20,000 nt of DNA. Source: Reclinomonas americana ATCC 50394. Its lineage: Eukaryota. The notes below the pieces were generated by a model that saw only the letters and a program-made list of their open reading frames with translations, searched no databases and was not told where the DNA came from. The stretch lies in NCBI GenBank assembly GCA_048213135.1, contig PS015097.1:190542-210541 (forward strand), in the 5' to 3' direction. Below, one piece after another: positions 1,600 to 19,895 of this stretch. The position numbers and the translations under genes were made by a program. How positions within the stretch are numbered: the stretch's first letter is position 1; every line of letters starts with the position of its first letter.

Positions 1600-3535
1600 T
1601 ACGATGTAGGCGACTCATACACGTCGGTGATGTACAACTCTGTAAGTGTGCAGGTGCCTACGTTATTGGCGATCACAACAAAAGGCATCGTACAGCAAGC
1701 CAGGAAGAAGAATACCTTAGCAGTGACCACAGTACTAGTAGACTTGCTCAGCTACCTGAGAGTCGACGAAAGCACCACACTTCCGCAAGGCCTTCCAGCC
1801 AGCAATGTGGCTCTTGGAGTAGAAGTGTGACATCGCAGGCAAAAAGCAAGAGGCAAGGGAAANNNNNNNNNNNNNNNNNNNNNNNNNNNNNNNNNNNNNN
1901 NNNNNNNNNNNNNNNNNNNNNNNNNNNNNNNNNNNNNNNNNNNNNNNNNNNNNNNNNNNNNNNNNNNNNNNNNNNNNNNNNNNNNNNNNNNNNNNNNNNN
2001 NNNNNNNNNNNNNNNNNNNNNNNNNNNNNNNNNNNNNNNNNNNNNNNNNNNNNNNNNNNNNNNNNNNNNNNNNNNNNNNNNNNNNNNNNNNNNNNNNNNN
2101 NNNNNNNNNNNNNNNNNNNNNNNNNNNNNNNNNNNNNNNNNNNNNNNNNNNNNNNNNNNNNNNNNNNNNNNNNNNNNNNNNNNNNNNNNNNNNNNNNNNN
2201 NNNNNNNNNNNNNNNNNNNNNNNNNNNNNNNNNNNNNNNNNNNNNNNNNNNNNNNNNNNNNNNNNNNNNNNNNNNNNNNNNNNNNNNNNNNNNNNNNNNN
2301 NNNNNNNNNNNNNNNNNNNNNNNNNNNNNNNNNNNNNNNNNNNNNNNNNNNNNNNNNNNNNNNNNNNNNNNNNNNNNNNNCACAACACCACCGTCAGCCA
2401 GCCGTCCGACCACCAGCGGAGGCTGACCAGCAGCAGCAGCAGCAGCCGGATGCACCTCCACACTGACACCCAACTTCAGAGCGTGCCCGAGAGTAACACC
2501 CATCAGATTGGAGCGAACAGCGCGGCGAGGAGCATTCGGATCAGTGGCCACTTGGAACCGAGTACCTGCATCAGAAGCAACCGCAGCAGCACCAGCCGGA
2601 AGAGCAACAGGAGACAGCAACACAGAGAAATTCCGCTGAGGCGAGTGGCAACTGGCAGCTGCTGGCAATTGACGTCTGTGACCTCGTTCGTCTGTGCCGG
2701 TACTTGGCCACCAAACCAGCAGTCGGCAACGGCGAGAAGTCATCAACACGACCACCGGCCGCCTTCACCGAGCAGTAGAGCATGTGCTCCGCCACACGGC
2801 GAGTCAGCGGACGGCGGTGTGTCAACAGCTTCACCGCCGAGTTGATCAACAGAGAGGCCGCTCGCTCCACCACAGAGCACAGGCCGCGACCACCTTTCGA
2901 CAGCGGAGTGTAGAGGAAGGGTGTGCCGGAGTCGTTGCCGAGGCCAAGGCAGAGTCGGATGCTGTCGCGGATCTTGCAGTCGATGTTGGCGAGCACGTCC
3001 GGCTGGAGCTCCACGGCCGACATGACAAAGGTGACCTTGGGGAGGACGAAGCAGCGAACGGCATCCACCTTCTGGAGCGGCAACAGCGACGACGACTGCT
3101 TGGTGGCCTCGATCGGAGTGAAGAGCTGCTTCTCCAGCATCTCCGCCACTTCAGCTTGCTTCTTCGCCTCGCTTGTACGAGTCGGTGAGTAGAACGGGTA
3201 GCCAAGCCAACGATCGCACTCAGTGATAGATGACATGGATCGCAACGCAGTGCCAGCCATCAGCAGCTCGGGATCGAACTCCTCCGCCACAAAGTTCTGC
3301 GCCTGCATTGGACCAGTTCGGCTTGTTCCGAGCACGCAGAGCCAGCACCAATGACTTCTGCGGGTTGTCGGCAATGCCAGACCACTCGGCCAAACGCTTG
3401 ACAGATCCAGCACCAGCTGCGCCTCACGAACGGAAGACACCACGTGACGATCATCGGCTAAAGCAGAAACACACAGGTGCACACCGAGTTGGAAAGAACA
3501 GGCTGTTGCCGACACGGCAGGCACCAGGGAGACGT
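1600..3535 (-). mobile_element. Degenerate restriction-endonuclease-type non-LTR retrotransposon (R2/NeSL/Utopia-like): RT C-terminal half and thumb, interrupted by a gap
   Basis: Minus-strand translation gives VSALADD (3450-3461, degenerate YADD-type motif) and a frameshifted AEWSGIADNPQKSL (GLxxNxxK-like). It continues RWLGY (KYLG-like), LLPLQKVDAVRCFVLPKV, IDCKIRDSIRLCLGL and FLYTPLSKGGRGL, which are typical of the R2-group thumb. Beyond the gap, HIAGWKALRKCG resembles the downstream HxxxWxxLxxQG linker but is followed by stops, so the left boundary is approximate. Confidence 0.75.
1863..2380. other. Assembly gap
   Basis: Run of N. Confidence 1.
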
Positions 3536-4660
<1,125 letters not shown>

Positions 4661-4768: not shown

Positions 4769-7700
4769 ATGCCTTGCCGCGACGACCATCGTGCAAGGCA
4801 CTGCCTTTACCACCGCACCTCCCCCTATCAACATCACCACCACAACCGCCGTCACTGGTCATTACTCTCACTCACCCTCCTGCTGACGGTGCTGCTAGTC
4901 GCCAGTCACTCCTCTGCTTCCGCCTCCACCTCCACCCCCCCACACAGCGTGTTTCTCAAGTCACGCGCATTCGAGGCCACACAGACGGACGCGCGAGTGG
5001 CACTGCACCATCCCACGCAAGTGGTGAGTATATGAGAGAGAGAGAGATAATGTGTGTGTGACAGAGAGCCAACGGCAAGTTCGGGTATTTCTCGCTCTTT
5101 CTCCTTCTCTCTCTCCCTCTCAGTCGTCATGCAGCTCCCCACATACACATACACACATCCTTACCTTCCCTATCTCCCTCTCACCTTCCCTCTCATTCTC
5201 TCATCATCCAATCACAATCATGTCCGAATCCGACTGCTGATGATGACTCGCAGTCCTTGTACCTCGTCACCGCCGACACGACCGAGGAGTCGCGTATTCA
5301 GTCGCACGTGCACGACGCCGGCACAGTGGAGACATGGCAGCGGTATCAGCGGGCACTTGATCAGCTCACGCGTCACGTGGCGGTGCACGACACGCAGGAG
5401 TGCCAGGTGGACTCACTGCTGGTGGCGCTGGCCTACGTGCCACAGCATACACGGATAGTGGCGTGCTCGGCTCGCACCGCACAGCAGCTGGCCTCGTTTG
5501 CGTCGGTGTCGGTGATGGAGTGGAGAGATCGGCTGTCGCGAGGTCTGTTGCGGCGGCTGGACGCCGACAGCGCCGACGCCTCGGCCGCTCTGCTGTGGGT
5601 CACGCTGGCCGAGGGAGTGCCTGCGGCGTGTCACGCGCATGTTGCCACTCCAGCGGTGACGCACAGCTTTACGCCACGGCGCGCCGATGCACCTGCCTCG
5701 TCGCTGTCGCTGCGTGATTTGGTCGCCGACGATTTGCTGGCGGTGCTGCCACACGGCGCCACCATCGTGGATACCACGCTGTCGGCGATCAGCGCATCAG
5801 CATCGCGAGTGCTCGTGTCGTGTTCGGCGTCGGCAATGGCGGCTTGTGTTCGCCGTCTCGCCGAGCACCCGCTGGTGTTGTATGTGGAGGAGGATCCGCA
5901 GCTGCGCCTGTTCAACGCGGCTGCGTCGTCTCGCATCCAGGGCGGCGGCACAACGACGACCACCATCCCGTTCTACGATCATGGGATCACCGGTGTGAAT
6001 GAGATTGTGGGCTGTGCGGATTCCGGCATTGATTACGACTCGGCCTATTTCCGCGACTCGTTCAGCGACCCCGCCAGCCCGCTGTTCTCCACCAGTGGGA
6101 CATCGGTGGACTCGAGTGCCCGCAAAATCATTGCGTACCAGTTGCGTCTCTGCATCGTGCCCCCGCTGCGAGCGAGACGGCGGATCTCATTGACTGTGCA
6201 GAGTGTTTGCCGATCGACTGGACGACGGTGATGTCGGCCACGGCACACACGTCTCCTGCACTCTTGTCGGCAGTCCCGTCGGCGGAACAACAGCCTCGTG
6301 GGCTTTTCAGTATCACGGTGTCGCGTATGGAGCCAAGATGTTTTTCCAGGACGTGGGCTTCAGCAGCGGCGAGGCGAGTGAAGTGTTGCCGGAGAAGAGT
6401 GAGTGTGTCGATCACTCATCCGCGCGTCCACAGAGTCTTGCCGTTCCGCTAGATTCGAGTACCCTGTTTACGGCACCCTACAATGCTGGTGCTCGTGTTC
6501 ACTCGAATTCATGGGTATGTGTTTCCCACAACGCTGAATGTGTGTGGCTCGGTTGTCGTTATTCATTCGTGGTTTGCGCGTGTTGCAGGGATCCTCCGAC
6601 CAGGAGTACTCGTCCATTAGTTCCACTCTCGACAATTTTGTGTGGAATCACCCCACCTTCCTGCCCGTTGTGGCGGCCGGCAACAGTGGCCTATCGGGTG
6701 CTTCCACCATTGCCATGCCCGGCAGCGCCAAGAACTGCTTGAGTGCGTTGTTTTTCCCTTCCTCGCAATGGCTTTTGTTTCCTGAATCCTCGCCCCCTTG
6801 CCCAAAAACAACGCGCAGCTGTTGGAGCCGCGGAGAACTCGTACCTCTACGTTGATGGTGTGACACCGCTGGTGGGCTCACAGACGCTGTCCACGGCCAC
6901 CTCGCTGCCGATCGGCAAGGGCATTTTTGTTACTCCGACTTCGGGTGCGTGCTCGCGCGCGTCACGCTTGCTTCTTTCTGCTCAACGCTCATCACACATC
7001 ATGTGCAGGTTGTGTGACAATCTCTGGAGCCAAGGGTCGCATCGTGTTCCTCTCCGAAGGCGACTGCACACTGCGCCAGAAAACGGCGACGGCCAAGGCT
7101 GCTGGTGTCGCAGTTACGAGAGGCTGCTGCTGCTGCTTAGACTCTGCCTCGTACTCACGAGATATTGTGATGCGCAGGGCGTTGTCATCCTCAGCAGTTC
7201 TCTCAGTTTTGGCAGCGAGGATCTCTCCGATTTGCAGCTGCCGGTTGTGCTCGTGCAAGACAGTGTGACACTGCGATCGGCCGTGGCCGAGAATCGCGAC
7301 ATTTCGATTGTTGCTCGTACGTCACTGCCCATTCAACGTTTCCTGTTTTTTCGATTACTCACATGCCTGTTTCCACCACAGGTGGCCTCTTGTTGTATGG
7401 CGTGTCGGCTGTGAATCCGAGTGCCGTGGCGTCGTTTTCGAGTCGAGGCCCGACATTCGATGGTCGTCTCAAACCAGAAGTCCTTGGTCCCGGTCGCTAC
7501 GTGGTCAGCGCCGACAGCGATGGTGCTATTGATATGTCGTCGCCGGGCTCGGTGGCAGTCAAGGGTCTCGAGGGAACCTCCATGGCCACACCCGGTACGC
7601 TCCTCGTGGCCTGGATGCATGCGTGCATGTGTGCGTGCATGCTGACTTGTGCTGCAGTGGTCGCTGGCGCCGTGACACTCATGCGGCAGTACTTCCGCGA

Positions 7701-10149
7701 CGGTTGGTATCCAAGTGGCGCGCCGCAGGCTTCCGATTCTCGCGTTCCGTCGGCTGCGCTCCTCAAGGCACTGGTGGTGGCCGGTGCACAGCCACTCTCC
7801 GGCGCCAATTCCGGAGGTATGTTGTGTTTGATCAGCAACCGGGAGGGAGAGAGTCTCCTGGTCGCTGATGCAATTTGTCGCTGGTTGATAGGGTCCGTGC
7901 CAAACACCACACAAGGCCACGGTATCCTGCAACTCGATCGCGTCCTGCCGTTTGCCGACAGCAACCCCGACTTTTCGCTGCTGGTCTTCGACTCCAACAC
8001 GATTACGGCGAACTCTGAACAGTCTCAGTGTTTCGATGTCAGCAACTCGGGCGTCTATCTTGCGGTGTGTATATGGATGTCCCTGTCTCACTCCTTTCAT
8101 CTTGCCTGGCACCTCCCGCTTATCGCGCGCGCACCAGGTGGCCATGGCGTACATGGACTTCCCGGCGTCGACTTCCGCGTCGACCGTGATTGTCAACGAG
8201 GTCAACTTGAAACTCGAACTCCCCAACGGCACCACTCGCTGGGGCAACAGTCGATCTACCTCTGACACAGTGCGTATGCTGATGGCGGCCAGCGATGCGC
8301 GGTGCACTTTTTTCTCACTTTTTGCTTGCTATGCAGCCGGACTCGTTGAACACGGTGGAGAATGTGCGCCTCGATTCGCCGCCCGAGGGTCGCTATCGCA
8401 TCACAGTGGCCGCAGGGCCGATTCCCCACGGTCCACAGCCGTACGCAATTGTCGTCCGCGGTGCAGTGGCCACTGCCACTTGTGGAAGTTGTGTACATTG
8501 CGGCACTGTGTGATCGGTGCATGCATTCGCTGACAAGTGTATTCCAACTTGTCAGACACCTGCCCCGGCACACCCGAGTGCAACGGCAATGGTCGATGCT
8601 CATTCAGCAGCTGCATCTGCAATGTGCGTACCCTTTGTGTGGTGACAGAAATCGTCGTTCTATCTCGCTGACCCTCGACACAGGCTGGATATGAGCCCGG
8701 CGATTGTTACACTCGTTGCGGTGTTTTACCTCGTCGCAAGCGCTGCCATGTGTGCGCTAACTCGTTTTGCGCGCAGCAATGACGGTTATTCCGTACGGGG
8801 CGCGTGTTGTGCGCTCACTGAACAGCAAGACACTCGACTATATCAAATTCCGCCCGTCGCTCACTCCCAGTTTCGCTTGCTTCACACGCGCGTCGTCACG
8901 TACTGATCGCACGCTCACTGAAGAACAGATGCCACTCGTGCTGCCGGAGAGGAGCTGCGAGCGGTCGCCGTGCCTGTGCGCATCATACTGACGCAGGTGG
9001 CGGGCGACGCTGTGCCGCAGCTGCTGATTCGCGTCGGCGCAGCGCCGACACTAAGTGCGTACTTGCGCGGAGTGACCACGTCGGGCACCACTCGAGTTGG
9101 GTCGTGTCATTGCAGCAACCTCTTTTTCTCCCTCTCTCACACACACATACACTCACTTCACGCGCTGGGTTCGGCAGACATACAATGGACAGTTTTCCGT
9201 CACCGACGACGTGTACGTTGCTGTGGCCGTGACCGGCACAGATCCGAACACCATGTACAGTCTGGAGGTGCGTGACTGCCAAGGCTGCTCCTCTCGCACG
9301 TCGTTCTGTCCGGACATTCGTTGCATTGTTGCGTCACATGACGACTCTACCGTATGCTATGTGCCTGCCTCTGACTTATAATAACTGTACTCTCTTTTCA
9401 CAGGTGACCCTGGCCAGTGGCATTGTGATTGGTTGCCTGATTGTGGTCATTTCGCTGCTGTGTTGTCGCTGTTCGCGAAGGCAAGCGGTGAAGAACAAGG
9501 TGCGTTTGTGTGCGGCCGTACATCGCACCGGCTGTCCGATGTCTCACTTTGCCCGTGCAGGAGTACGGCCTCTTGTTGGAGGCACGTTCATCTCGGCAGG
9601 CGTCGTCACGTCGCACAAAGATCACGCCGACTGGAGTGAGTGTGTGTGTGTGTGTGTGTTTCGTGCAACTCTTCGCGCTTCTCGACATTTTAGTGACTGT
9701 CGATGTGGGCGCGCAGACGACGGCAGATGGTGTTGCGATTGGTGGGGACGCCATCAACAACAACTTCCAAGTTGTTCATCGCGCCGGCGATATTCCCCTC
9801 GTGGAGCTCGTTACGCCACCACCGCCACTTCCACCACCGTATGGACATCATCACAGTGCACTGCGCGGTGCAGCCGAGGTGCGTGTGTGTGTGTCACCGC
9901 GTTCACATCCAGGAATTCACACGCTGACGATTCTCTCCCAACGCACAGGCGACCCACTTGCCTCTGTCGGTGCCACTGGTCGAGTTGCACAGCGGTCATC
10001 CGTCGCTGGTGGTCGACGTACACAGCAGTGCGCTCTCGCCACGTGCGTACACGCAAGGAAACGCTGTGATTTATCACACGGGGCCGCCACCATCGTCCGT
10101 CGGCGACGTGTACGATCCGCACGCTCTCCTCACCCCAACCGCCTCGTAA
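4769..10149 (+). CDS. Type I membrane subtilisin-like S8 serine protease (TagA/Kp43-like catalytic domain) with PA insert, C-terminal beta domain, EGF-like repeat, TM helix and cytoplasmic tail; about 1262 aa, 22 exons
   Basis: Exons: 4769-5023, 5254-6140, 6202-6373, 6434-6514, 6589-6742, 6819-6944, 7009-7112, 7178-7316, 7382-7594, 7658-7816, 7892-8064, 8138-8269, 8337-8487, 8556-8623, 8684-8714, 8777-8869, 8929-9095, 9178-9327, 9404-9499, 9561-9635, 9717-9878, 9949-10149 (3789 nt, in frame). Motifs: signal-like LLSLTLLLTVLLVAS; catalytic ADSGID, HGTHV, AAGN and GTSMATP; ARVHSNSWG; FSSRGPTFDGRLKPEV; PA-like KGRIVFLSEGDCTLRQK; EGF-like CPGTPECNGNGRCSFSSCICNAGYEPGDC; TM VTLASGIVIGCLIVVISLLCC. 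Confidence 0.9.
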
Positions 10150-10227
10150 TAATAATGTAATCACTGAATAGTTCTGCTGTTTATATTTTCCCTCCTGCCC
10201 CGTTCCCGATGCACCCCTAGCAACTAA

Positions 10228-12640
10228 CTACTCCTCGGCGTACGAGGCCAAGAGCGCCAGTGCATCTGACACATCATCAGAGGACAAGGCCGGCGCTGCT
10301 GCTGGTGCAGCATGGGCGGCAGCCGCCGGTGGTGCCTTGCCACCTGCTGGCTTGTGATAGTAGCGCTCATCGTCATCGGCCTCCCACGCTGTCTCGCCCT
10401 CCATGCCAGGCTACATAACACAAAACCACACATATAGCAGGCCACTGTCAGTATCTCTGTGCTGGCAGACGCGAGTGCGTGCACGCAACTGCTGCCGAGG
10501 CCTGGGTAGTGGTGGTCGTGGTGGTGGTGGAGGATGATGAACCGGACGCAGCGCCCGGGTACGCATAATTGGCGTATCCGGCGTACATGTACGCGGCAGC
10601 GGCAGGCAGCGCGTAGAACTGACCGTCGGCGCCCACGTAGCCCGCCATCATCGGCTGCTGGTAGTAGGCACCTGAACCGGCGGCGGGTGCGGGCGGTGGA
10701 GCAGGTGCCGCTCCTGGGTTGGCGTGCACATACTGCGCGTCGGTATTGGGGTACAAGTACGTCTGCGAGCTGGGATTGTGCACGAGATCGTCCACTTTTT
10801 GTCGCTTCAGATCCGGCTCCGGCACGTCGTACTGTGAGGGGTAGTTGAAACCGGTCTCCACTGTGCTGGCCATGGACGCCTGAATGGCCGCCGCCACTCG
10901 GTCCTCCTTCTTTTGTGCCTCGCGCACCACCACCGTTGGGTTGGGGTCGTCGGTGGCCCACTTGATGTTCAGCACCTCGTCGTTGCCGAGCGACTGATTT
11001 GTCATGGCCTCCTTGCCGAACTCGGCACCCACGCGATACACGTAGCGCACAAAGGCGAAGCCGCGCTCCGCGAACACCTTGACTGTGGGTGGGGAAGTGA
11101 GGGAGAAGGGGGGAGTGAGGAGAAGAGATGGGGGAAGAGAAGGGAAAGAGCAAGGGGGAGAGAAGGGGAGAGAAGGGGGAGGAGAAGGGGGGAGGAGGAA
11201 GGGAGGAGAGGAGGAGAGGAGGAGAGGAGGAGAGGAGGAGGAGGAGGAGGAGGAGGAGGAGGAGGAGGAGGAGGAGGAGGNNNNNNNNNNNNNNNNNNNN
11301 GGAGAGGACGGAAGGGAGAGACGGAAGGGAAGTAGGAAGGGGAAGAGTAGAAGGGAGAGTGGAGGGAGAGTGGAGGGAGACGAGGGAGACCGAGGGGAAG
11401 ACGGAATGGGGAGGAGCAAGGGGGAAGGGGGAAGAGCAGGGGGAAAGGCAAGGGGGAAGAGATGGAGAGAGGGGGAAGAGCAAGGGGAAAGGGGGAAGAG
11501 ATGGGAGAGAGAGGGTAAGAGAAGGGGAGAGGAGAAGGGGGGAAGACAAGCAAGAGAAGACACGCCAGAATACTAGAACAAGAGAACTGACAGGGACGCA
11601 CGAAGAGAGGCTGAGGTTGGAAGAGAAAGAATGCAAAGACCGCAAGGACAGTGATCGAGTGTCGACCTGATTCATCAACAAAGAGTCCAGACGCAACGTT
11701 CTTCAATTTGACCCCACTCGCCGAATTGATCGAGCAGTGTTTCCTGCAAGAAGAAAGCAACAGAGTGAACAAACACACATGCCACCACTCCGTGCAGTGC
11801 ACGCTTCACACCCACCGCCAGGCTGACTTTGTACAAATTCTTGATGCCACCAATGTAGAGGGTGCGATTCTCGCGATTGAAGGTGCCGACACCACCCATG
11901 TCCTCACGATCAGCCCTACACACATGCATCAGCAAACGATGAGAGAAGAGTGAGTGAGCGACGAGGGAGTGGCGGCGGCCCACTCACGAATGTCTCTCAC
12001 GACCGAAAATGTCGTGAATGTTGGCCAGCTTCAGTTCGTCGTCCTCATTCGGCAAGTGATGCTTGTACAGGCATTCGTAGCCCTGCACTCACGCACACAC
12101 ACATAAGAGACGCTGCCTCCACGACCATGGCTGTCACCTTCTACGACTCAACTCGGCAGCACTGTCCACGCGCAAAATGCACGCAAAAGAACGATCCCTC
12201 ACGCGTATCGCCACGAGTGCGCCCGGCGTCACGCAACACATTGCATCGCGTCTCAGCCGCACTAGGTACACCCGCAAAAAAAATAATCAGTGCCCACAGA
12301 CAACTCGCACACACAATCGAAATGCATTTGCCACGCACACTCGATCCTTCTCCTTCTTGGCGCGGAATCCGCAAAACTTGCCGTACCCTGTGCACCACCG
12401 CATGAGCGAGTGGAGGGGGGGGGGCGCAAAGAGAGACGACACAAGAAAGAGACGCAACAGATGTTGTAGTACAAGCCCTCCTCTTCCTCAGTTGCTTGAC
12501 GAGCCACCGGTTGATCAACCTGAAATCGATGATGATGATTCAGACTCCAAAGACAACTCCAGAAACAACGACTGCTGCGTCTCTCTCTCTCTCACACACA
12601 CATTTGCACTCATTTCTTCCAATCCTTCTCCAAATTCCTT

Positions 12641-12695
<55 letters not shown>

Positions 12696-13580
12696 TCCGT
12701 CTTCNNNNNNNNNNNNNNNNNNNNNNNNNNNNNNNNNNNNNNNNNNNNNNNNNNNNNNNNNNNNNNNNNNNNNNNNNNNNNNNNNNNNNNNNNNNNNNNN
12801 NNNNNNNNNNNNNNNNNNNNNNNNNNNNNNNNNNNNNNNNNNNNNNNNNNNNNNNNNNNNNNNNNNNNNNNNNNNNNNNNNNNNNNNNNNNNNNNNNNNN
12901 NNNNNNNNNNNNNNNNNNNNNNNNNNNNNNNNNNNNNNNNNNNNNNNNNNNNNNNNNNNNNNNNNNNNNNNNNNNNNNNNNNNNNNNNNNNNNNNNNNNN
13001 NNNNNNNNNNNNNNNNNNNNNNNNNNNNNNNNNNNNNNNNNNNNNNNNNNNNNNNNNNNNNNNNNNNNNNNNNNNNNNNNNNNNNNNNNNNNNNNNNNNN
13101 NNNNNNNNNNNNNNNNNNNNNNNNNNNNNNNNNNNNNNNNNNNNNNNNNNNNNNNNNNNNNNNNNNNNNNNNNNNNNNNNNNNNNNNNNNNNNNNNNNNN
13201 NNNNNNNNNNNNNNNNNNNNNNNNNNNNNNNNNNNNNNNNNNNNNNNNNNNNNNNNNNNNNNNNNNNNNNNNNNNNNNNNNNNNNNNNNNNNNNNNNNNN
13301 NNNNNNNNNNNNNNNNNNNNNNNNNNNNNNNNNNNNNNNNNNNNNNNNNNNNNNNNNNNNNNNNNNNNNNNNNNNNNNNNNNNNNNNNNNNNNNNNNNNN
13401 NNNNNNNNNNNNNNNNNNNNNNNNNNNNNNNNNNNNNNNNNNNNNNNNNNNNCGAACGGACGGCGTCGGCCGAACGAAGTAGTAATAGGTCGTCGTCGTC
13501 GTCGTACGTACTACCGCCTCGTCCGTACCACACTACTTCACTCACTCTTCTACTACTCTCTACTACCTCCCCTCCCCTCC

Positions 13581-13621
<41 letters not shown>

Positions 13622-13764
13622 TGCTTTGGGGCCTTGCGCTTTCGCCAGTCAAAGCGCAACGGATGCGTCTCATCAATCGGCTTTCCCGCGTACGACACAC
13701 CCGGCGGTCCCTTGCGCAACCCGCCACCAGAACTCGAAATCGGCGCACGAGGAGCAGCACTCAT
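10228..13764 (-). CDS. CWC2: Pre-mRNA splicing factor CWC2/Cwf2 (Torus/CCCH zinc finger + RRM; RBM22-related); about 459 aa
   Basis: Exons (minus): 13764-13621, 12519-12459, 12387-12339, 12261-12153, 12082-11988, 11915-11816, 11743-11698, 11082-10490, 10410-10228 (1380 nt, in frame; an extra exon could lie in gap 12705-13452). Motifs: YNIWYGKF, AETRCNVLRDAGRTRGD, FCVHFARGQCCRGYECLYKHHLP, DIFGRERH, REDMGGVGTFNRENRTLYIGGI, AEFGKEAMTNQSL, EVLNIKWATDDPNP. Confidence 0.92.
11088..11600. repeat. Polypurine/polypyrimidine low-complexity tract including (GGA)n, inside a CWC2 intron; contains a 20-N gap at 11281-11300
   Basis: Almost only G/A on the + strand; (GAG)n at about 11232-11280. Confidence 0.9.
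12650..13618. repeat. (CT)n microsatellites flanking assembly gap 12705-13452 in CWC2 intron 1
   Basis: (CT)n at about 12650-12691 and 13585-13618. Confidence 0.9.
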
Positions 13765-14157
13765 ACTGAAAGAAAGAAAACGCGCGCGTGTGTGAGAGAG
13801 TGAGAGTGATGGCCATTTCACAAACACACACGCACGCACGCACTGTGGAGACAAGGCACACACGCGCGCGCTGAGTGACTTGCACACACACGCACACGCA
13901 CGCACACGCAAAGACGCAGAGAAGAGCGTGCGAACAGGGAACAAGAGACAACACAAACTCGACTCAAATCACACACTGCACACGAACGCGCACACACACT
14001 CCCCACACACACACACTCTCTCTCGCACAACACACACACGCGCGCACACACCTTGCCGCGAACTGGTGGGTTACCGATGCAGAAGTTCATTCCCACGCAG
14101 CGTCCCGGTAGCCCCGACGGACACCTTTCACGCACTCTTACTTTCACACACACAAAG
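13765..14157. promoter_or_regulatory. 393-bp divergent intergenic region, probable bidirectional promoter and 5' UTRs
   Basis: Lies between the CWC2 ATG (13764, -) and the RRM-gene ATG (14158, +); CA/CGCA-rich. Function inferred from gene arrangement only. Confidence 0.55.
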
Positions 14158-16113
14158 ATGGCCAGCGCCTCTTCTGGCGGAGGCGGAGGCAGTGCGTCTT
14201 CGCCATCCGCGGGATCCCCGACAACAGGAGCATTGTCAAGTGATGCAGGTTTTGTTTTTTGTTTGTTTGTTTTTGATGCAATCATGTCTTCTCTCTCTGT
14301 GTGGTGCTTAACAGTGAAAAAATGGACAACACACCACACAGCGAGCAGTGCGGCTGCGAATTTGAGGGTTCCTGCAGGGCTTGACACAAGCAGCTGCCAG
14401 AGTCTGTTGCGTTGTTGTTGTTGTTGTTGTTGTTGCGCGCCATTTTCCACTCTCGCACCCCTCTCTTGCTCTCTCTCGCTCACTGTCACTGTCACCACGT
14501 GCATGCTGTTTGCCTGTCTCTGTGTGTCTTGCTTGCTGCATGTGCGCTGCGTGTGTTGCACATTGCTTTTTCTCCGCGCGCTCAGTGTGTGTGTGTGTCT
14601 TTCTTGTCCTTCTCTCTTTCTCTCTCTCCCTCTCTCTGTGTGCGTTGCTCTCTGTGCATGCGTGCGTGTGTGCAACGCACCACTCCGTATTGCACTTGTT
14701 TCAGAGTGATGCACTCGTCATTTATTGTTATTGCTCGGGTCAACGCACGCGCGCGTGCACAACGACATTCTCTCTTCTCTCTTTCTCTCAGTCTCTTCTC
14801 TCCCCGTCTCTTCGCCCTATGCTCTCCTCACGTGTGCATGCATGGTCGCTTATCATTTGTTGAATCTTACATTCGGTCGCGCACAGTTACATTGGCAACC
14901 TCGACCCGCGTGTCGATGAGGCCACGCTGCAAGAGTTCTTTAGCTCACTGTCGGTGAGCGGCACCTGCAAGATCATTCGCAATCGCGCGGTACGTGAGAG
15001 CGTGTGTATTGTGCGCGTGTGTTCGGTTCTGTATCTCTCTCTCTCTGACGCGGGCGCAGCAGAATGGCGAGAGTCAGGGGTACGGTTTCGTTGACTTTGA
15101 CGATCACGAGTCGGCTGCACGCGCGCTGAGTAAGCTGGAAGGGCAGCGCGTGTTTGACCGCGATCTCAAGATCAACTGGGCCTACGCGGGAGCCACTGGC
15201 CAGCGCGAGGACACCTCGAGTTGCGCATCTTTGCTCTCTCTCTCTCACACACACACACACGCACACAGGCAGGCAGCTCTGCTCATAGCTCCTTTGTTGC
15301 GGCGCAGCGCACTTCAATCTCTTTGTGGGCGACCTAAGTCCGGAGGTGACAGATCACGTCTTGTGGCAGTTCTTTAGCGATTTTGGCAGCATCAGCGATG
15401 CCCGTGTCATGTGGGATCATGCCACGAAGAGATCGCGTGGTTTTGGTTTTGTCTCGTTCCGGGAAAAGGCGGTACGTCGCCGTGTATGCCCGTGGTTTCT
15501 ATTTTACACTGCGAGCTGATGATTTTCACTCCACTCGAAACAGCATGCGGAACAGGCGCTGGCCAAGATGAATGGTTTGCTCTCTGTGCACCGCTTCTCC
15601 TCCCCAGTCTGTACGTCTCTTTTTTTTGAAATCAATGCCATGCGCGCCGTGCTCCACCAGGTGAATGGCTCGGTAGCCGCAACGTGCGTGTGAACTGGGC
15701 CAATCAGAAGCAGAATTCGCGGAATGCAGCGGCCGCTGCGGCCGCCGCGGCCGCATCCTCCGGTTCACCCGCAATGATACCGGTGGGTCACGGTCCGCAG
15801 CCGTTCCACCAGCACCACCATCATCATCATCACCACCACGGTGGACATCCGCACCACCACAGTCCTGCTGGTGTTGCGGGAGGCGCCAGTGGAATGGGAG
15901 GCGGCGGTGGTGGCAGTGGCGGTGGTGGCAGCGGTAGCGGCGGCCATGTCGGCAGCAGTGGAGGTGGCAGTGGTGGTGCCGTTGGCGCGCATGGCATGTC
16001 GTCGGTGGCCGGCGGACCAGGTGGCGTTGCCCCTGTGTCTCCGGGCCTTGTGGGCGCCGCCGGCGTCCCTCCTGCAGGTGTCGGCGCAGCAGCAAGTGAG
16101 TCGCTGGCTCTGC

Positions 16114-16163
<50 letters not shown>

Positions 16164-17364
16164 TGCGTGTTTGGCCCGGTGGTGCTCACGTGTGACTGGC
16201 GGTGGCGATGTAGGAAATCTGCAGAGCGATTTTTGGAGCGTGTACCGCGCCAGCCCGCAGACCAACACAGTGGTCTATGTCGGAAACTTGCCGCACGAAG
16301 GCACCACGGAAGATCTCTTGCGCGCACACTTCGCACCCTTTGGAAATGTGATTGAGGTGCGGTTGCAGCCGGAGAAGGGCTTCGGTTTCCTCAAGATGGA
16401 CACACACGAGTCGGCGACGCAATGCATTGTGAACATGAACGGCACCGTCTTCAACGGACGACCGATTCGAGTTGCGTACTGTGCGGCGTGTTCTGGTGGT
16501 GGCTGGTAGTTGGTGACGCTCACATCTGCACGCAGTGCGGATGGGGTCGCGATCGAGCTGCACCTGCTGGCGGCATGCACGGTCGGCAGCAGCAGCAGCC
16601 ACACGGTGGCTTCGGGTACGGATACCCACAGAGTTATCCGTACGGATATCCACAGGCGTATGGGTTTGTCAAAAAAAACAAATGCAATTTCTGCAGTTGT
16701 TGCGCAGCAGCTGACGTCGCGCCCGCAGTTACGGTTACGGCCAGCAGCCCGGTGGACAAGGGGGAGCGCCGGGTCAGGGACCATCGTCTCCGCAGGCTGC
16801 GTCTCCGCTCAGCGCACTCCCGGGACTCAGTGTGGGTGTCGGCAGTGCACTAGGCAGCCACCCGGGTGGCGTGGTTCCGCCGCCGCACACTCACAGTGGT
16901 GCGATGCACCCACACTCGCCGTCGGCACTCGAACTGATGCCGCCTCTCGGCTCTCTCGGCGGCGCCCACTCGCCGCCACCCGGAGCACTCGGTGGTGCTC
17001 CGTCGCTCGCCAACGGTGCCGCCATGTCGCCGTCAAGTCCCGGCGCTGCCAACGCCGCTGGAGGAGACCCCAGTCACTATGTTGCGTTCGGCAGTGGGGG
17101 AGGTGAAAGAGTGACAAGTGTTCTCATCTCGCGCACGTGGTGGTGTCACAGCCGTACTTTTATGGCTACTCGTATCCCACGTACTACGGGTACCCGAACT
17201 ACGCCGCCCACACGCACTCGCAGCCGGCGCCAGCGCACGCAATAGCGGGCGGTGTCTCTGGCGGGCACGGAAATGGCGTGTCCTCGGGTGGCGGTGCCGG
17301 TGGAGCCGGTGGCAACGGCGGCAGCGACGGTCATTCCGCGCCGCCGCAGTTGACCCTCGAGTGA
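14158..17364 (+). CDS. TIA1/TIAR-UBP1-Pub1 family oligouridylate-binding protein: 3 RRMs and a prion-like C-terminus; about 653 aa, 11 exons
   Basis: Exons: 14158-14248, 14378-14405, 14887-14989, 15060(or 15063)-15219, 15308-15471, 15544-15574, 15661-16095, 16214-16470, 16536-16663, 16729-17080, 17152-17364 (in frame). Motifs: [107 protein letters not shown]. These closely resemble plant UBP1 and fungal Pub1. Confidence 0.92.
16118..16160. repeat. (GA)n microsatellite in intron
   Basis: Dinucleotide run inside intron 16096-16213. Confidence 0.95.
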
Positions 17365-17753
17365 CGCGCCTCTTGCATCTCTAGTACTTCCTATGCATAT
17401 GCATGTGTGTGTAGACCGTTATTGTGTGTTTGTTGTTGATGTTGGCGTGTGAGAGGGTGATTTTTTTCAAGTTGCGTCGTTGGAACTGCCGCTTTCGCTG
17501 CGCGTCGTGCGTGCCAGTCATCGCTGACTGGCGACAACAAATTTGTTCCTCCCTCTCCGCAGTTGTGCAATGGACTGTAAGTGGACTCGGGAGGCTAGCC
17601 GATGTCATGGCGCGGAATGAGCGAGTGTTTTGCTGTGTGTGTGTGTGTGTGAGCGTGTTGTGGGAGTAGGTGTGGTGAGAGTGTGAGAGAGGAAGCAAGT
17701 CGGTTTGGCGGATGAGCCGTGTTGTACCAAGACAACAGAGCAGAAACAGTGTG

Positions 17754-18475
17754 CTATGGGGGTTTCACTTTTCCCTTGCCAAGCTGCTCGTCAATCAGCA
17801 CCTTGACCTGCTCCAGGAATGTCCATACTTGCTCGTCGCTCGCGGTTCCGGTGTCGCCAACGCCGCCTCGTAGTCTGCCCAGACGAGTGCACTTTTAAGA
17901 TGCCGCCGCCGACAGCACGACAAGCAACGCAGAGTACCTGGCATCGCTCAGCGCCTGTGTGACCTCGCGGCAAATGTGACTGCGCATCGTCGGGTCCGGC
18001 ACCGCCGCCATGCCCTCCAGCACCTCCTGCGCCAACAACACGCGATCCCAGCGGCGGTTGAGCTGAGTCAACGAGTTGTCGTGGTCAGCGGATCCCTGTT
18101 CACCAATAGTACTGCGAATGGCATCAGCGAGGGAGTGAGAGCGAGGGGCGCGGAAGCCGGCGGACGCAACGCAGCCACCACCGCCCGCACATCCTGCTCC
18201 GCTTGCAGCAGATCCAACTTCCGATGCAACTCGGCACGGGTCATCTCCATTTGCCCACTGCGTGGCATGAGAATCGCTGCGAGCACCACAGTGCCTCCGT
18301 CCTTCTGCACACACGCAACTCGCGAAAGAACCATCCCATCGGCACCGACAAGGCCAGCGGATCTGCACCAGTCTCCACGACTGTGCCACCTGCTCGCTGC
18401 TCAGATCCCTGTCGCTCATGCCGATCGCTGAGGGCACGCTGCAGCTCCGAGAAGAAGTTATCCTGCATCGCGTGA
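17754..18475 (-). CDS. Hypothetical helical protein, at least 4 exons; 5' end uncertain (may extend to about 18633)
   Basis: Exons ~18475-18320, 18257-18171, 18111-17938 and 17874-17754 join in frame through 59-63 nt introns: HAMQDNFFSELQRAL...GWFFRD/GQMEMTRAELHRKLDLL...VVAA/TIGEQG...WDRVLLAQEVLEG...R/LRGG...VWTFLEQVKVLIDEQLGKGKVKPP*. Confidence 0.65.
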
Positions 18476-18744
18476 CTGTTGAGTGCGCGCAGTGCATTCT
18501 GTTTGTGTTAGTATAGTGGGCACACCAGTGTGACAACATGCTCGTTCTTGCTGCTGCTGCTGGACCATCGTAGTGCATGCGAGAAGTGCCAGACTGCAGT
18601 GAACCTTCGGACGATGGCCACGGGCAACAACATTGATGGATTTGAGACGAAGGCAGGCACAGGACCACCACCACTTGTGTAGCTTTTCTTTTGCACTTAT
18701 ACTTCACACGAAAGAGGCTGGAATGGCACCTCTTACACATCACG

Positions 18745-19055
18745 TTATTTCCGTCGCTTGCCGCCCTTCCGGCCGCCACCAGACTTCTTCTTGGACGGCG
18801 GGCTGTCGTCTTCGGATCCATCGGGAATCTCGGCGTTCGGATCGCTGTCGTCCACACCAGCCTGCGCGTCTGCCTCCTTCTCCTCGGCTGCGCGGTTGTT
18901 CTTGTCGGAGAGGGGATCGGTGTCGTCGTTGTCTGTGCTGCAACTGCGTGCCGCAGGATCCTCGAGGTCGTCGGGGCACATTTGCACAATGTTGCCGCCG
19001 TCGTCGTTGGCCAGGTACTCTGCGATTTCCTTGCTGGTGCCCTGCGTGCGTGCCA
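18745..19055 (-). CDS. Terminal exon of a gene starting to the right; acidic tract followed by a basic, NLS-like tail
   Basis: A pyrimidine-rich intron ends in CACAG at 19056, then VARTQGTSKEIAEYLANDDGG...DGSEDDSPPSKKKSGGGRKGGKRRK*. Confidence 0.65.
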
Positions 19056-19119
19056 CTGTGTCGAGAGGGGGGTAGGGGGAGAAGAGATGAGAACGGAGAG
19101 AAGAAGAGAAGAGGGAGGG

Positions 19120-19806
19120 TAGAGACTGACGGGCATAGCGAGAGAGGAACGAAAAGAGAAATAGAGTGACAGACAGAAAGAGTGGAACGATGGCGGAGAG
19201 AAGCGAGGGGGGAGGGAGGACAGAAAGGGGAAGACAGACAGCGAGGGTGAGAGAGATAGAGAAGTGAGAAAGTGAAGAGAATAGAAAGGGCGGGACGGAA
19301 GGAAAGACAGAGAAGGAGCGCAGCGAGAGAGGAACGGAAAGACAGACGAGTGACAGTGACAACGGCAGACAGAAAGAGTGGAACGATGGCGAAGAGAAAG
19401 AGAGCAGAGAGGGGGAAGGGAAGAATAGTTAGAGGAAGACAGACAGCGAGGGTGAAAGAGATAGAGAAGTGAGAAGAGAAAGACTGACGGGAACAGCGAG
19501 AGAGGAACGAAAAGAAGAAGACAGAGTGACAGTGACAACGGCAGACAGACAGAGTGGAACGATGGCGAAGAGAAAGAGAGCTGAGAGGGGGAAGGGAAGA
19601 ATAGTTAGAGGAAGACAGACAGTGAGGGAAAGAGAGATAGAGAAGTGAGAAAGTGAAGAGAATAGAAAGGGCGGGACAGAAGGAAAGACAGAGTGACAGT
19701 GACAACGGCAGACAGACAGAGTGGAACGATGAAGAGAAAGAAAGCAGAGAGTGAGGAGGGAATAGCTAGAGGAAGACAGACAGTGAGAGAAAGAGAGATA
19801 GTGAAA

Positions 19807-19810
<4 letters not shown>
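19120..19810. repeat. Degenerate purine-rich tandem repeat, about 4 units of roughly 170-200 bp, intronic
   Basis: Recurring blocks AGAGTGGAACGATG (about 19179, 19376, 19552, 19719), GAGTGACAGTGACAACGGCAGACAGA and GAGATAGAGAAGTGAGAA. Confidence 0.85.

Positions 19811-19812
<2 letters not shown>

Positions 19813-19895
<83 letters not shown>
19813..19895. repeat. (GA)n microsatellite
   Basis: Dinucleotide run. Confidence 0.95.

Follow-up and report, generated by a model that had tools for sequence, protein, structure and literature searches.

The distance from the cut at a 5' splice site to the G that pairs with C4 of the U1 RNA, and then with the ACAGA box of the U6 RNA, is treated as nearly fixed. 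The locus described here raises the question whether a gene can make use of two such distances at once. It lies in a window of 20,000 nucleotides (20 kb) of contig PS015097.1 of Reclinomonas americana ATCC 50394, and all positions refer to this stretch as a whole. The original prediction for the window described, interleaved with the ordinary 5' splice sites (donors), an abundant second class with the form GTTNNG, mostly GTTGCGT, in which one extra T follows the GT. In the gene models rebuilt here such GTT sites exist, serve as exon ends and form a coherent class with an exon-side preference of its own. They are best read as the starts of real U2-type GT-AG introns, which would be recognized in a register shifted by one base or with one U bulged out.

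Introns and donor classes in the gene models

The models cover four neighbouring genes, about 14 kb inside the window, and the share of approximately 40% GTT introns applies to these genes. The models were rebuilt from GT..AG ends, continuity of the reading frame and homology, and the donor motif was not used as a criterion. Altogether 41 introns were modelled, mostly 59–93 nucleotides (nt) long. All of them have GT..AG ends; their removal restored the frame in all 41 cases and left uninterrupted proteins.

A donor with GTT and G at +6 begins 18 of the 41 introns when the possible case at 14249 is included, and the remaining 23 introns have other donors, here called ordinary. Without the sites 9328, 14249 and 8488 the GTT class comprises 15/41 introns. 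The original tally was 42 introns, one more than in the present models, and the share of about 40% in the four genes holds. All 17 GTTNNG sites listed originally, as well as the possible 18th, were found at the positions and on the strands claimed for them (Table 1; donors are named after the position of their first base).

The two classes have the same consensus, displaced by one base. In the ordinary donors (n = 23) a purine is present at +3 with a single exception (G14, A8, T1), the next position is variable (+4: C12, A5, T5, G1), G follows at +5 in 22 and T at +6 in 18. In the GTT donors (n = 18) the same series begins at +4 (G15, A1, T2) and continues with a variable position at +5 (C14, T2, G1, A1), G at +6 in all 18 and T at +7 in 14. 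Accordingly, the local consensus GT[G/A][C/A/T]GT reappears one base downstream, and because the counts match when moved by one position, the GTT class corresponds to the ordinary class with one U inserted after GU. For the 17 sites listed originally, the composition given to them was also correct: G at +6 in 17/17, T at +7 in 13/17 and a base other than G at +5 in 16/17, the exception being 9096.

The separation between the classes is clear. Among the 19 donors that have T at +3, 18 carry G at +6, in 17 cases combined with a base other than G at +5; G at +5 is present in 21 of the 22 donors without T at +3 and in 1/18 of the GTT class. The nineteenth donor with T at +3, GTTTGC at 15575 (+), has G at +5 and is alone in keeping to the normal register.

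Also the exon side differs between the classes. The last exon base (-1) is G in 14 of the 23 ordinary donors (G14, A4, C3, T2) and in one of the 18 GTT donors (A10, T4, C3, G1). The difference is significant both for G (14/23 vs 1/18; Fisher p = 2.7e-4) and for A (4/23 vs 10/18; p = 0.019). The sole site of the GTT class with G at -1 is the possible 18th case, 14249. Five GTT donors share the exon end CGA, three of them on the forward strand (15220, 16471 and 9096) and two on the reverse strand (18319 and 12152). These occur in three codon phases, and the shared CGA suggests an extended exon-side motif.

Intron sizes and acceptors were originally described as the same in both classes, and this was borne out. 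The median lengths are 71 vs 72 nt (one acceptor was corrected after this count), and the 3' ends are CAG in 35 and TAG in 6 of the 41 introns, with no difference between the classes. A CTNAY motif, resembling a U2-type branch site, was found in the last 45 nt of 16/17 GTT introns and of 16/22 other introns, two N-containing introns being excluded from the count.

The window contains 12 copies of the motif GTTGCGT, compared with 3.74 ± 1.99 expected from 200 dinucleotide-preserving shuffles, none of which reached 12; its frequency in the window is therefore above chance. Ten of the 12 copies coincide with modelled donors and have the orientation of the gene in which they lie. The remaining two lie in an exon of the Cwc2-like gene (12237, -) and in the 3' untranslated region of the RRM gene (17471, +), so GTTGCGT alone is insufficient as a donor.

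Donors supported by homologous proteins

Gapless alignment with homologues pinned five GTT donors, of which 12458, 12152 and 11697 belong to gene 2, coding for a Cwc2-like splicing factor, and 15220 and 16471 to gene 3, coding for a TIA1/PUB1-like protein with three RRMs. No rival in-frame GT is present nearby at any of the five. Together with the consensus moved by one base, these junctions support the original claim that the second abundant donor class is genuine.

For gene 2 the family alignment included 76 Cwc2 homologues, and the statements on family spacing apply to 35 of them. P0002, the closest of these, is gapless against the model across all junctions, and the family spacing is kept at each. 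Its longer cluster mate P0152 has 52% identity to the 459-aa model and aligns without gaps over residues 36–268, a stretch that spans the donors 12458, 12152 and 11697. At 12458, an intron starting with GC three bases downstream would insert one residue. At 12152 the Pfam matches of the two exons lie next to each other on the Torus profile: residues 2–35 of the 36-aa upstream exon correspond to profile positions 49–82, which places its last residue at 83, and the downstream exon covers positions 84–109, with one unaligned residue between the two matches. The intron at 11697 is 615 nt long and contains a gap of 20 N.

The two pinned donors of gene 3 were placed by the alignment with P0154. Structures in the PDB gave no help in pinning 15220, as the linker of yeast PUB1 is shorter at this point than the segment encoded by the flanking exons.

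Table 1. Genes and GTT-class donors in the window, with the context of each donor and the alternative splice sites found near it.
Feature	Position	Strand	Context and alternatives	Introns
Gene 1	4769..10149	+	subtilisin-like (S8) protease: PA domain, EGF-like segment, membrane span	20 (7 GTT class)
GTTGCGT donor	6141..6147	+	before protease His-motif exon; alternatives GTACCAG 6135, GC start 6144	
GTTACGA donor	7113..7119	+	inside PA domain; upstream exon is PA profile 25-52; in-frame alternative GTCGCAG 7107	
GTTGTGT donor (doubtful)	8488..8494	+	in-frame GT three bases downstream, 8491	
GTTGCGG donor	8715..8721	+	after EGF-like exon; in-frame alternatives 8721, 8706, 8733 without G at +5	
GTTTCGC donor	8870..8876	+	sole in-frame GT alternative GTACTGA at 8900	
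GTTGGGT donor	9096..9102	+	G at both +5 and +6	
GTTGCGT donor (doubtful)	9328..9334	+	ordinary in-frame GTGCGTG 60 bases upstream (9268); same acceptor possible	
Gene 2	10228..13764	-	Cwc2-like splicing factor (Torus/CCCH + RRM)	8 (4 GTT class)
GTTGCGT donor	12452..12458	-	splits conserved Trp codon after first base; gapless vs P0002, P0152; family spacing kept	
GTTGAGT donor	12146..12152	-	inside CCCH/Torus zinc finger; gapless to P0152; no other in-frame GT within 20 bases	
GTTGCGT donor	11691..11697	-	inside RRM; junction residues identical in P0002; family spacing kept	
GTTGCGT donor	10483..10489	-	low-complexity tail; only in-frame GT within 60 bases	
Gene 3	14158..17364	+	TIA1/PUB1-like, three RRMs, 663-aa model	10
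GTTTTGT donor (possible 18th case, doubtful)	14249..14255	+	in frame; ordinary in-frame GTGCGTC at 14192	
GTTGCGT donor	14406..14412	+	before RRM1; split Leu codon restores conserved RRM1 start; no in-frame GT alternative within 60 bases	
GTTGCGC donor	15220..15226	+	linker before RRM2; spacing across junction as in P0154; no other GT nearby	
GTTGCGT donor	16471..16477	+	end of RRM3; junction residues gapless vs P0154; nearby GTs out of frame	
GTTGCGT donor	17081..17087	+	Tyr/Gly-rich tail; frame-preserving; in-frame GT alternatives without G at +5	
Gene 4	17754..18468	-	177-aa protein, no recognised family	3 (2 GTT class)
GTTGCGT donor	18313..18319	-	intron 1 (62 nt); in-frame alternative GTCGGTG at 18349; frame model only	
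GTTGCGT donor	18164..18170	-	intron 2 (59 nt, acceptor 18112); rival pair 18178 (GTGGCTG) to 18096 also frame-keeping	

Pairing register and alternative explanations

The features expected of a shifted register are present in the GTT class, as the consensus lies one base downstream with a poor normal register, and also the exon preference has moved by one, so that -1 would have the role of -2. Judged from these patterns, it is rather likely that one standard U1 serves both classes and meets the GTT donors in the shifted register. The donor would then be the usual hexamer GT[G/A]NGT with an extra U after GU, giving GU-U-[G/A]NGU, and U1 would pair with it one base out of register. The first G of the intron would occupy the place of the last exon G and pair with C9 of U1, the preceding exon A would pair with U10, and positions +3 to +7 would pair as +2 to +6 do in ordinary donors. 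Cleavage would stay at GU, since the cut site would be fixed later by U5, U6 and Prp8. U6 would presumably pair with +6/+7 rather than with +5/+6, or the extra U might be looped out. The position of U1 is described as marking the splice site roughly, the cut being set later by U5 and U6 (PMC11162779).

One alternative is a bulge, in which C8 of U1 would pair with the +1 G, as is normal at the junction, and a single U of the two would be looped out. The intron-side pairs would be identical to those of the shift, and the arrangement has been validated in human cells as 'bulge +3 (or +2)' (PMC4856993). With U1 in its normal place at the junction, however, the ordinary preference for G at -1 would be expected, and G was found there in 1/18 compared with 14/23 donors. 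Because a one-base shift predicts the change from G to A at -1 and an exon-pairing bulge does not, the composition at -1 favours the shift over a simple bulge if the 5' end of U1 is standard, and with the same assumption we consider the bulge improbable.

The two classes could also have separate partners, namely the usual U1 and a second variant of U1, perhaps also of U6, with an extra base complementary to GUUGCGU. Such a pair of small nuclear RNAs (snRNAs) would agree with the sharp bimodality of the donors, 17/19 of those with T at +3 having G at +6 and not at +5, and with the preference of the ordinary class for C at +4 (12/23), a base that standard U1 leaves unpaired. In addition, U1 candidates with changed recognition sequences matching atypical donors have been presented for Entamoeba and Mastigamoeba (10.1101/2022.06.08.495308). 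According to the same source, donors with C at +4 are found also in Thecamonas trahens and the Mamiellales, yet their single strong U1 candidate is standard. Moreover, A in place of G at -1 is expected from one standard U1 sliding by one base, whereas a dedicated U1 would need no such swap. Two snRNA species are on these grounds an unlikely explanation, if one to be taken seriously. The window itself, searched as a whole against Rfam at gathering thresholds, gave no RNA family, snRNA genes included.

Broader than any of these pairing schemes is the proposition that two 5' splice-site codes coexist in the same genes throughout the genome, the second in about 40% of introns. This would involve either two U1 RNAs, perhaps also two U6 RNAs, with a one-base difference in the recognition sequence, or a single spliceosome that routinely accepts pairing of the U6 ACAGA box six, not five, bases from the cut. 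The proposition is put forward tentatively, as something possible rather than probable. A downstream U6 register of this kind, six bases from the cut, was not found described in the parts of the splice-site literature examined.

The GTT starts could in principle be artefacts of the gene models, the true introns beginning at another GT or at a GC three bases downstream (GTT/GCGT). Moving the start to +3 keeps the frame by necessity at every GTTGCG site and would close the one-residue gap against P0001 at 6141, and for 9328 and 14249 an ordinary in-frame GTGCGT exists. The same start would nevertheless add a residue at 12458, 11697, 15220 and 16471, where the homologues are gapless, and a GC start is impossible at GTTACG, GTTTCG, GTTGGG and GTTGAG, 6/18 GTT sites lacking GC at +4/+5 altogether. 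GC starts at 6141, 9328, 12458, 11697, 16471, 17081 and 18170 would have no G at +5, and the Torus profile is continuous at 12152. Neither does the threefold enrichment of GTTGCGT, with 10/12 copies at sense-strand exon ends, agree with misplaced junctions, and an artefact is considered very improbable as a whole. GC-AG introns starting at +3 were rejected for the class, as the extra residue is unsupported at the four homologue-aligned sites, 6/18 sites have no GC and several of the GC starts would lack G at +5; at 6141 such a start may apply.

It is hardly credible that an assembly or sequencing error added a T after GT, or that the class consists of recently inserted repeat introns with a donor of their own. 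The assembly is a draft with runs of N, which would leave room for errors, but these would have had to recur at one dinucleotide in the starts of 17 introns and in no comparable place, and TT is no long homopolymer. When 39 introns were compared all against all, only low-complexity matches were obtained. Introner-like repeat introns were rejected, as the introns compared have no sequence in common along their length. U12-type introns were likewise rejected: on reading, none of the 18 donor strings resembles the long U12 consensus, and the 3' ends and lengths are those of ordinary introns.

Some observations weigh against reading the GTT sites as shifted-register donors of a standard U1. The argument from -1 presumes that the 5' end of U1 is standard, and half of the ordinary donors (12/23) have at +4 a C with which standard U1 does not pair and which the changed U1 of Mastigamoeba matches (10.1101/2022.06.08.495308). 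At 6141 the alignment with P0001, the only homologue, has a one-residue gap, and moving the start downstream by three bases would close it. Other donors are plausible at 9328, 14249 and 8488, and a rival donor/acceptor pair competes with 18170. Every junction was derived from the reading frame and homology, and the sample consists of four neighbouring genes.

Comparison with known splice sites

In human 5' splice sites, U1 can pair shifted by one base or with a bulge at +3/+2, as validated with suppressor U1 RNAs, and the validated non-canonical registers jointly account for approximately 1.5% of the sites (PMC4856993). The mammalian shifted-register sites (Roca and Krainer 2009, via PMC4856993) resemble the GTT class in having an extra U after GU, the consensus one base downstream, all U1 pairs shifted and cleavage at GU. 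The share is different, 17–18 of 41 introns here compared with about 1.5% for the human non-canonical registers, and so is the core, GCGU here and AAGU in mammals. The mammalian sites have also been validated by suppressor U1, and the present ones are predicted from sequence. The human bulge +3/+2 register (Roca et al. 2012, via PMC4856993) likewise leaves one U after GU unpaired and has the same intron-side pairs, but it keeps the exon-end G paired, unlike the GTT class with its single G at -1 among 18 donors.

The tandem donor of STAT3 was presented as the first case with a changed U6 register, located one base upstream (PMC11162779). It is similar to the GTT class in that the distance from the cut site to the G:C pair formed with the ACAGA box of U6 would not be the usual five bases, the U6 pairing in the present introns being a prediction. 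It differs in direction and frequency, being a single human site with G at +4, one base upstream, whereas the G of the frequent GTT donors is at +6, one base downstream.

The ordinary donors of the window, with GTGCGT and thus C at +4, are similar to the donors with a pyrimidine at +4 in Entamoeba, Mastigamoeba, Thecamonas and the Mamiellales (10.1101/2022.06.08.495308), and this similarity leads to the same question whether U1 has changed here. In those lineages, one transformed consensus is used in the normal register, in contrast to the two registers found here within the same genes. With U12-type introns the GTT class shares the property of being a second, coexisting class with its own donor motif.

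No report of a lineage with an abundant GTT-type donor class was found in the literature on the motif and on shifted or bulged registers outside mammals, supplements being outside the scope of the search. Within the literature found, the kind of site is accordingly known, namely shifted or bulged 5' splice sites, and its abundance as a major class is the new aspect. If four in ten introns were of this type genome-wide, they would offer thousands of natural cases on how U1, U6 and U5 set the position of cleavage, in contrast to the rare human exceptions, each of which was demonstrated separately. The same cases could reveal whether snRNAs co-evolve with donor sites. The class also has a cost for annotation, as gene finders trained with only one donor matrix would get the structures of many genes wrong in this organism. 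One of the genes affected, gene 2, codes for a Cwc2-like spliceosome component positioned close to U6 and to the 5' splice site.

Donors with weaker support

Three sites, 6141, 8488 and 9328, were named as less certain already in the original prediction. Alternatives exist at all three; 8488 and 9328 are rated doubtful, and 6141 is left unpinned because of the gap in P0001 nearby. The register of 9096 is ambiguous, as G is present at both +5 and +6. Donor 14406 is consistent with the alignment to P0154, and downstream of 10489 the frame ends in a C-terminal motif that is present also at the end of P0002 (judged by eye, the BLAST alignment stopping earlier).

The intron at 14406 is 481 nt long. 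Its donor is followed directly by a (GTT)n run, and at the end of this run GTTGCG occurs once more, at 14432, where it is not used.

Genes of the window

The window is eukaryotic nuclear DNA with approximately 58% G+C in the genic parts, long microsatellites and four N gaps. The spliced model of gene 1 has 1282 aa and aligns to the S8 protein P0001 across the catalytic regions. Its PA domain was matched by Pfam from one exon, and the large protease exon used as a protein-search query gave a single distant match, which was again P0001.

In gene 2 assembly gaps lie inside two introns. Pfam matched the Torus domain on two consecutive exons, and one Cwc2 exon retrieved the Cwc2 family from 1.84 billion representatives; in the 'longer' mode the search with this exon gave no match. 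Look-ups of the clusters named distant fungal Cwc2 proteins only. The gene bears four GTT-class introns and is itself a spliceosome component, and it has no unusual insertions in comparison to its homologues.

The introns of gene 3 include four of the GTT class, the doubtful one at 14249 and one with the GTTTGC donor and G at +5. The identity of the gene is supported by the alignment with P0154 and by PDB matches to PUB1, TIA-1 and NAM8. The RRM3 exon, used as a protein query, had a single match, P0154, and a protein atlas gave weak RRM leads only. Two exons of gene 4 had no match in Pfam. The protein searches with the genes of the window returned no identical protein, and a metagenome scan found no relative.

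The third intron of gene 3 ends in a tandem CAGCAG acceptor at 15057–15062 (+), with acceptors at 15059 and 15062. Its use could give two products differing by one residue.

Other features of the window

Outside the four genes, long open frames are present at 637–1401 (+; 255 aa) and 2574–3449 (-; 292 aa), neither with a Pfam family, and an acidic open frame without a Pfam match at 18743–19060 (-). Pfam thus gave nothing on the three open frames outside the genes. Upstream of the acidic frame lies a purine-rich tandem repeat (19305–19842) with a unit of approximately 176 nt, 3.2 copies and 82% matches. An assembly gap of 843 N has a long (CA)n array on either side, at 3539–3673 and 4544–4660, each with approximately 60 copies. 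As the other gaps are also flanked by microsatellites, the gaps of the window probably hide simple repeats rather than genes.

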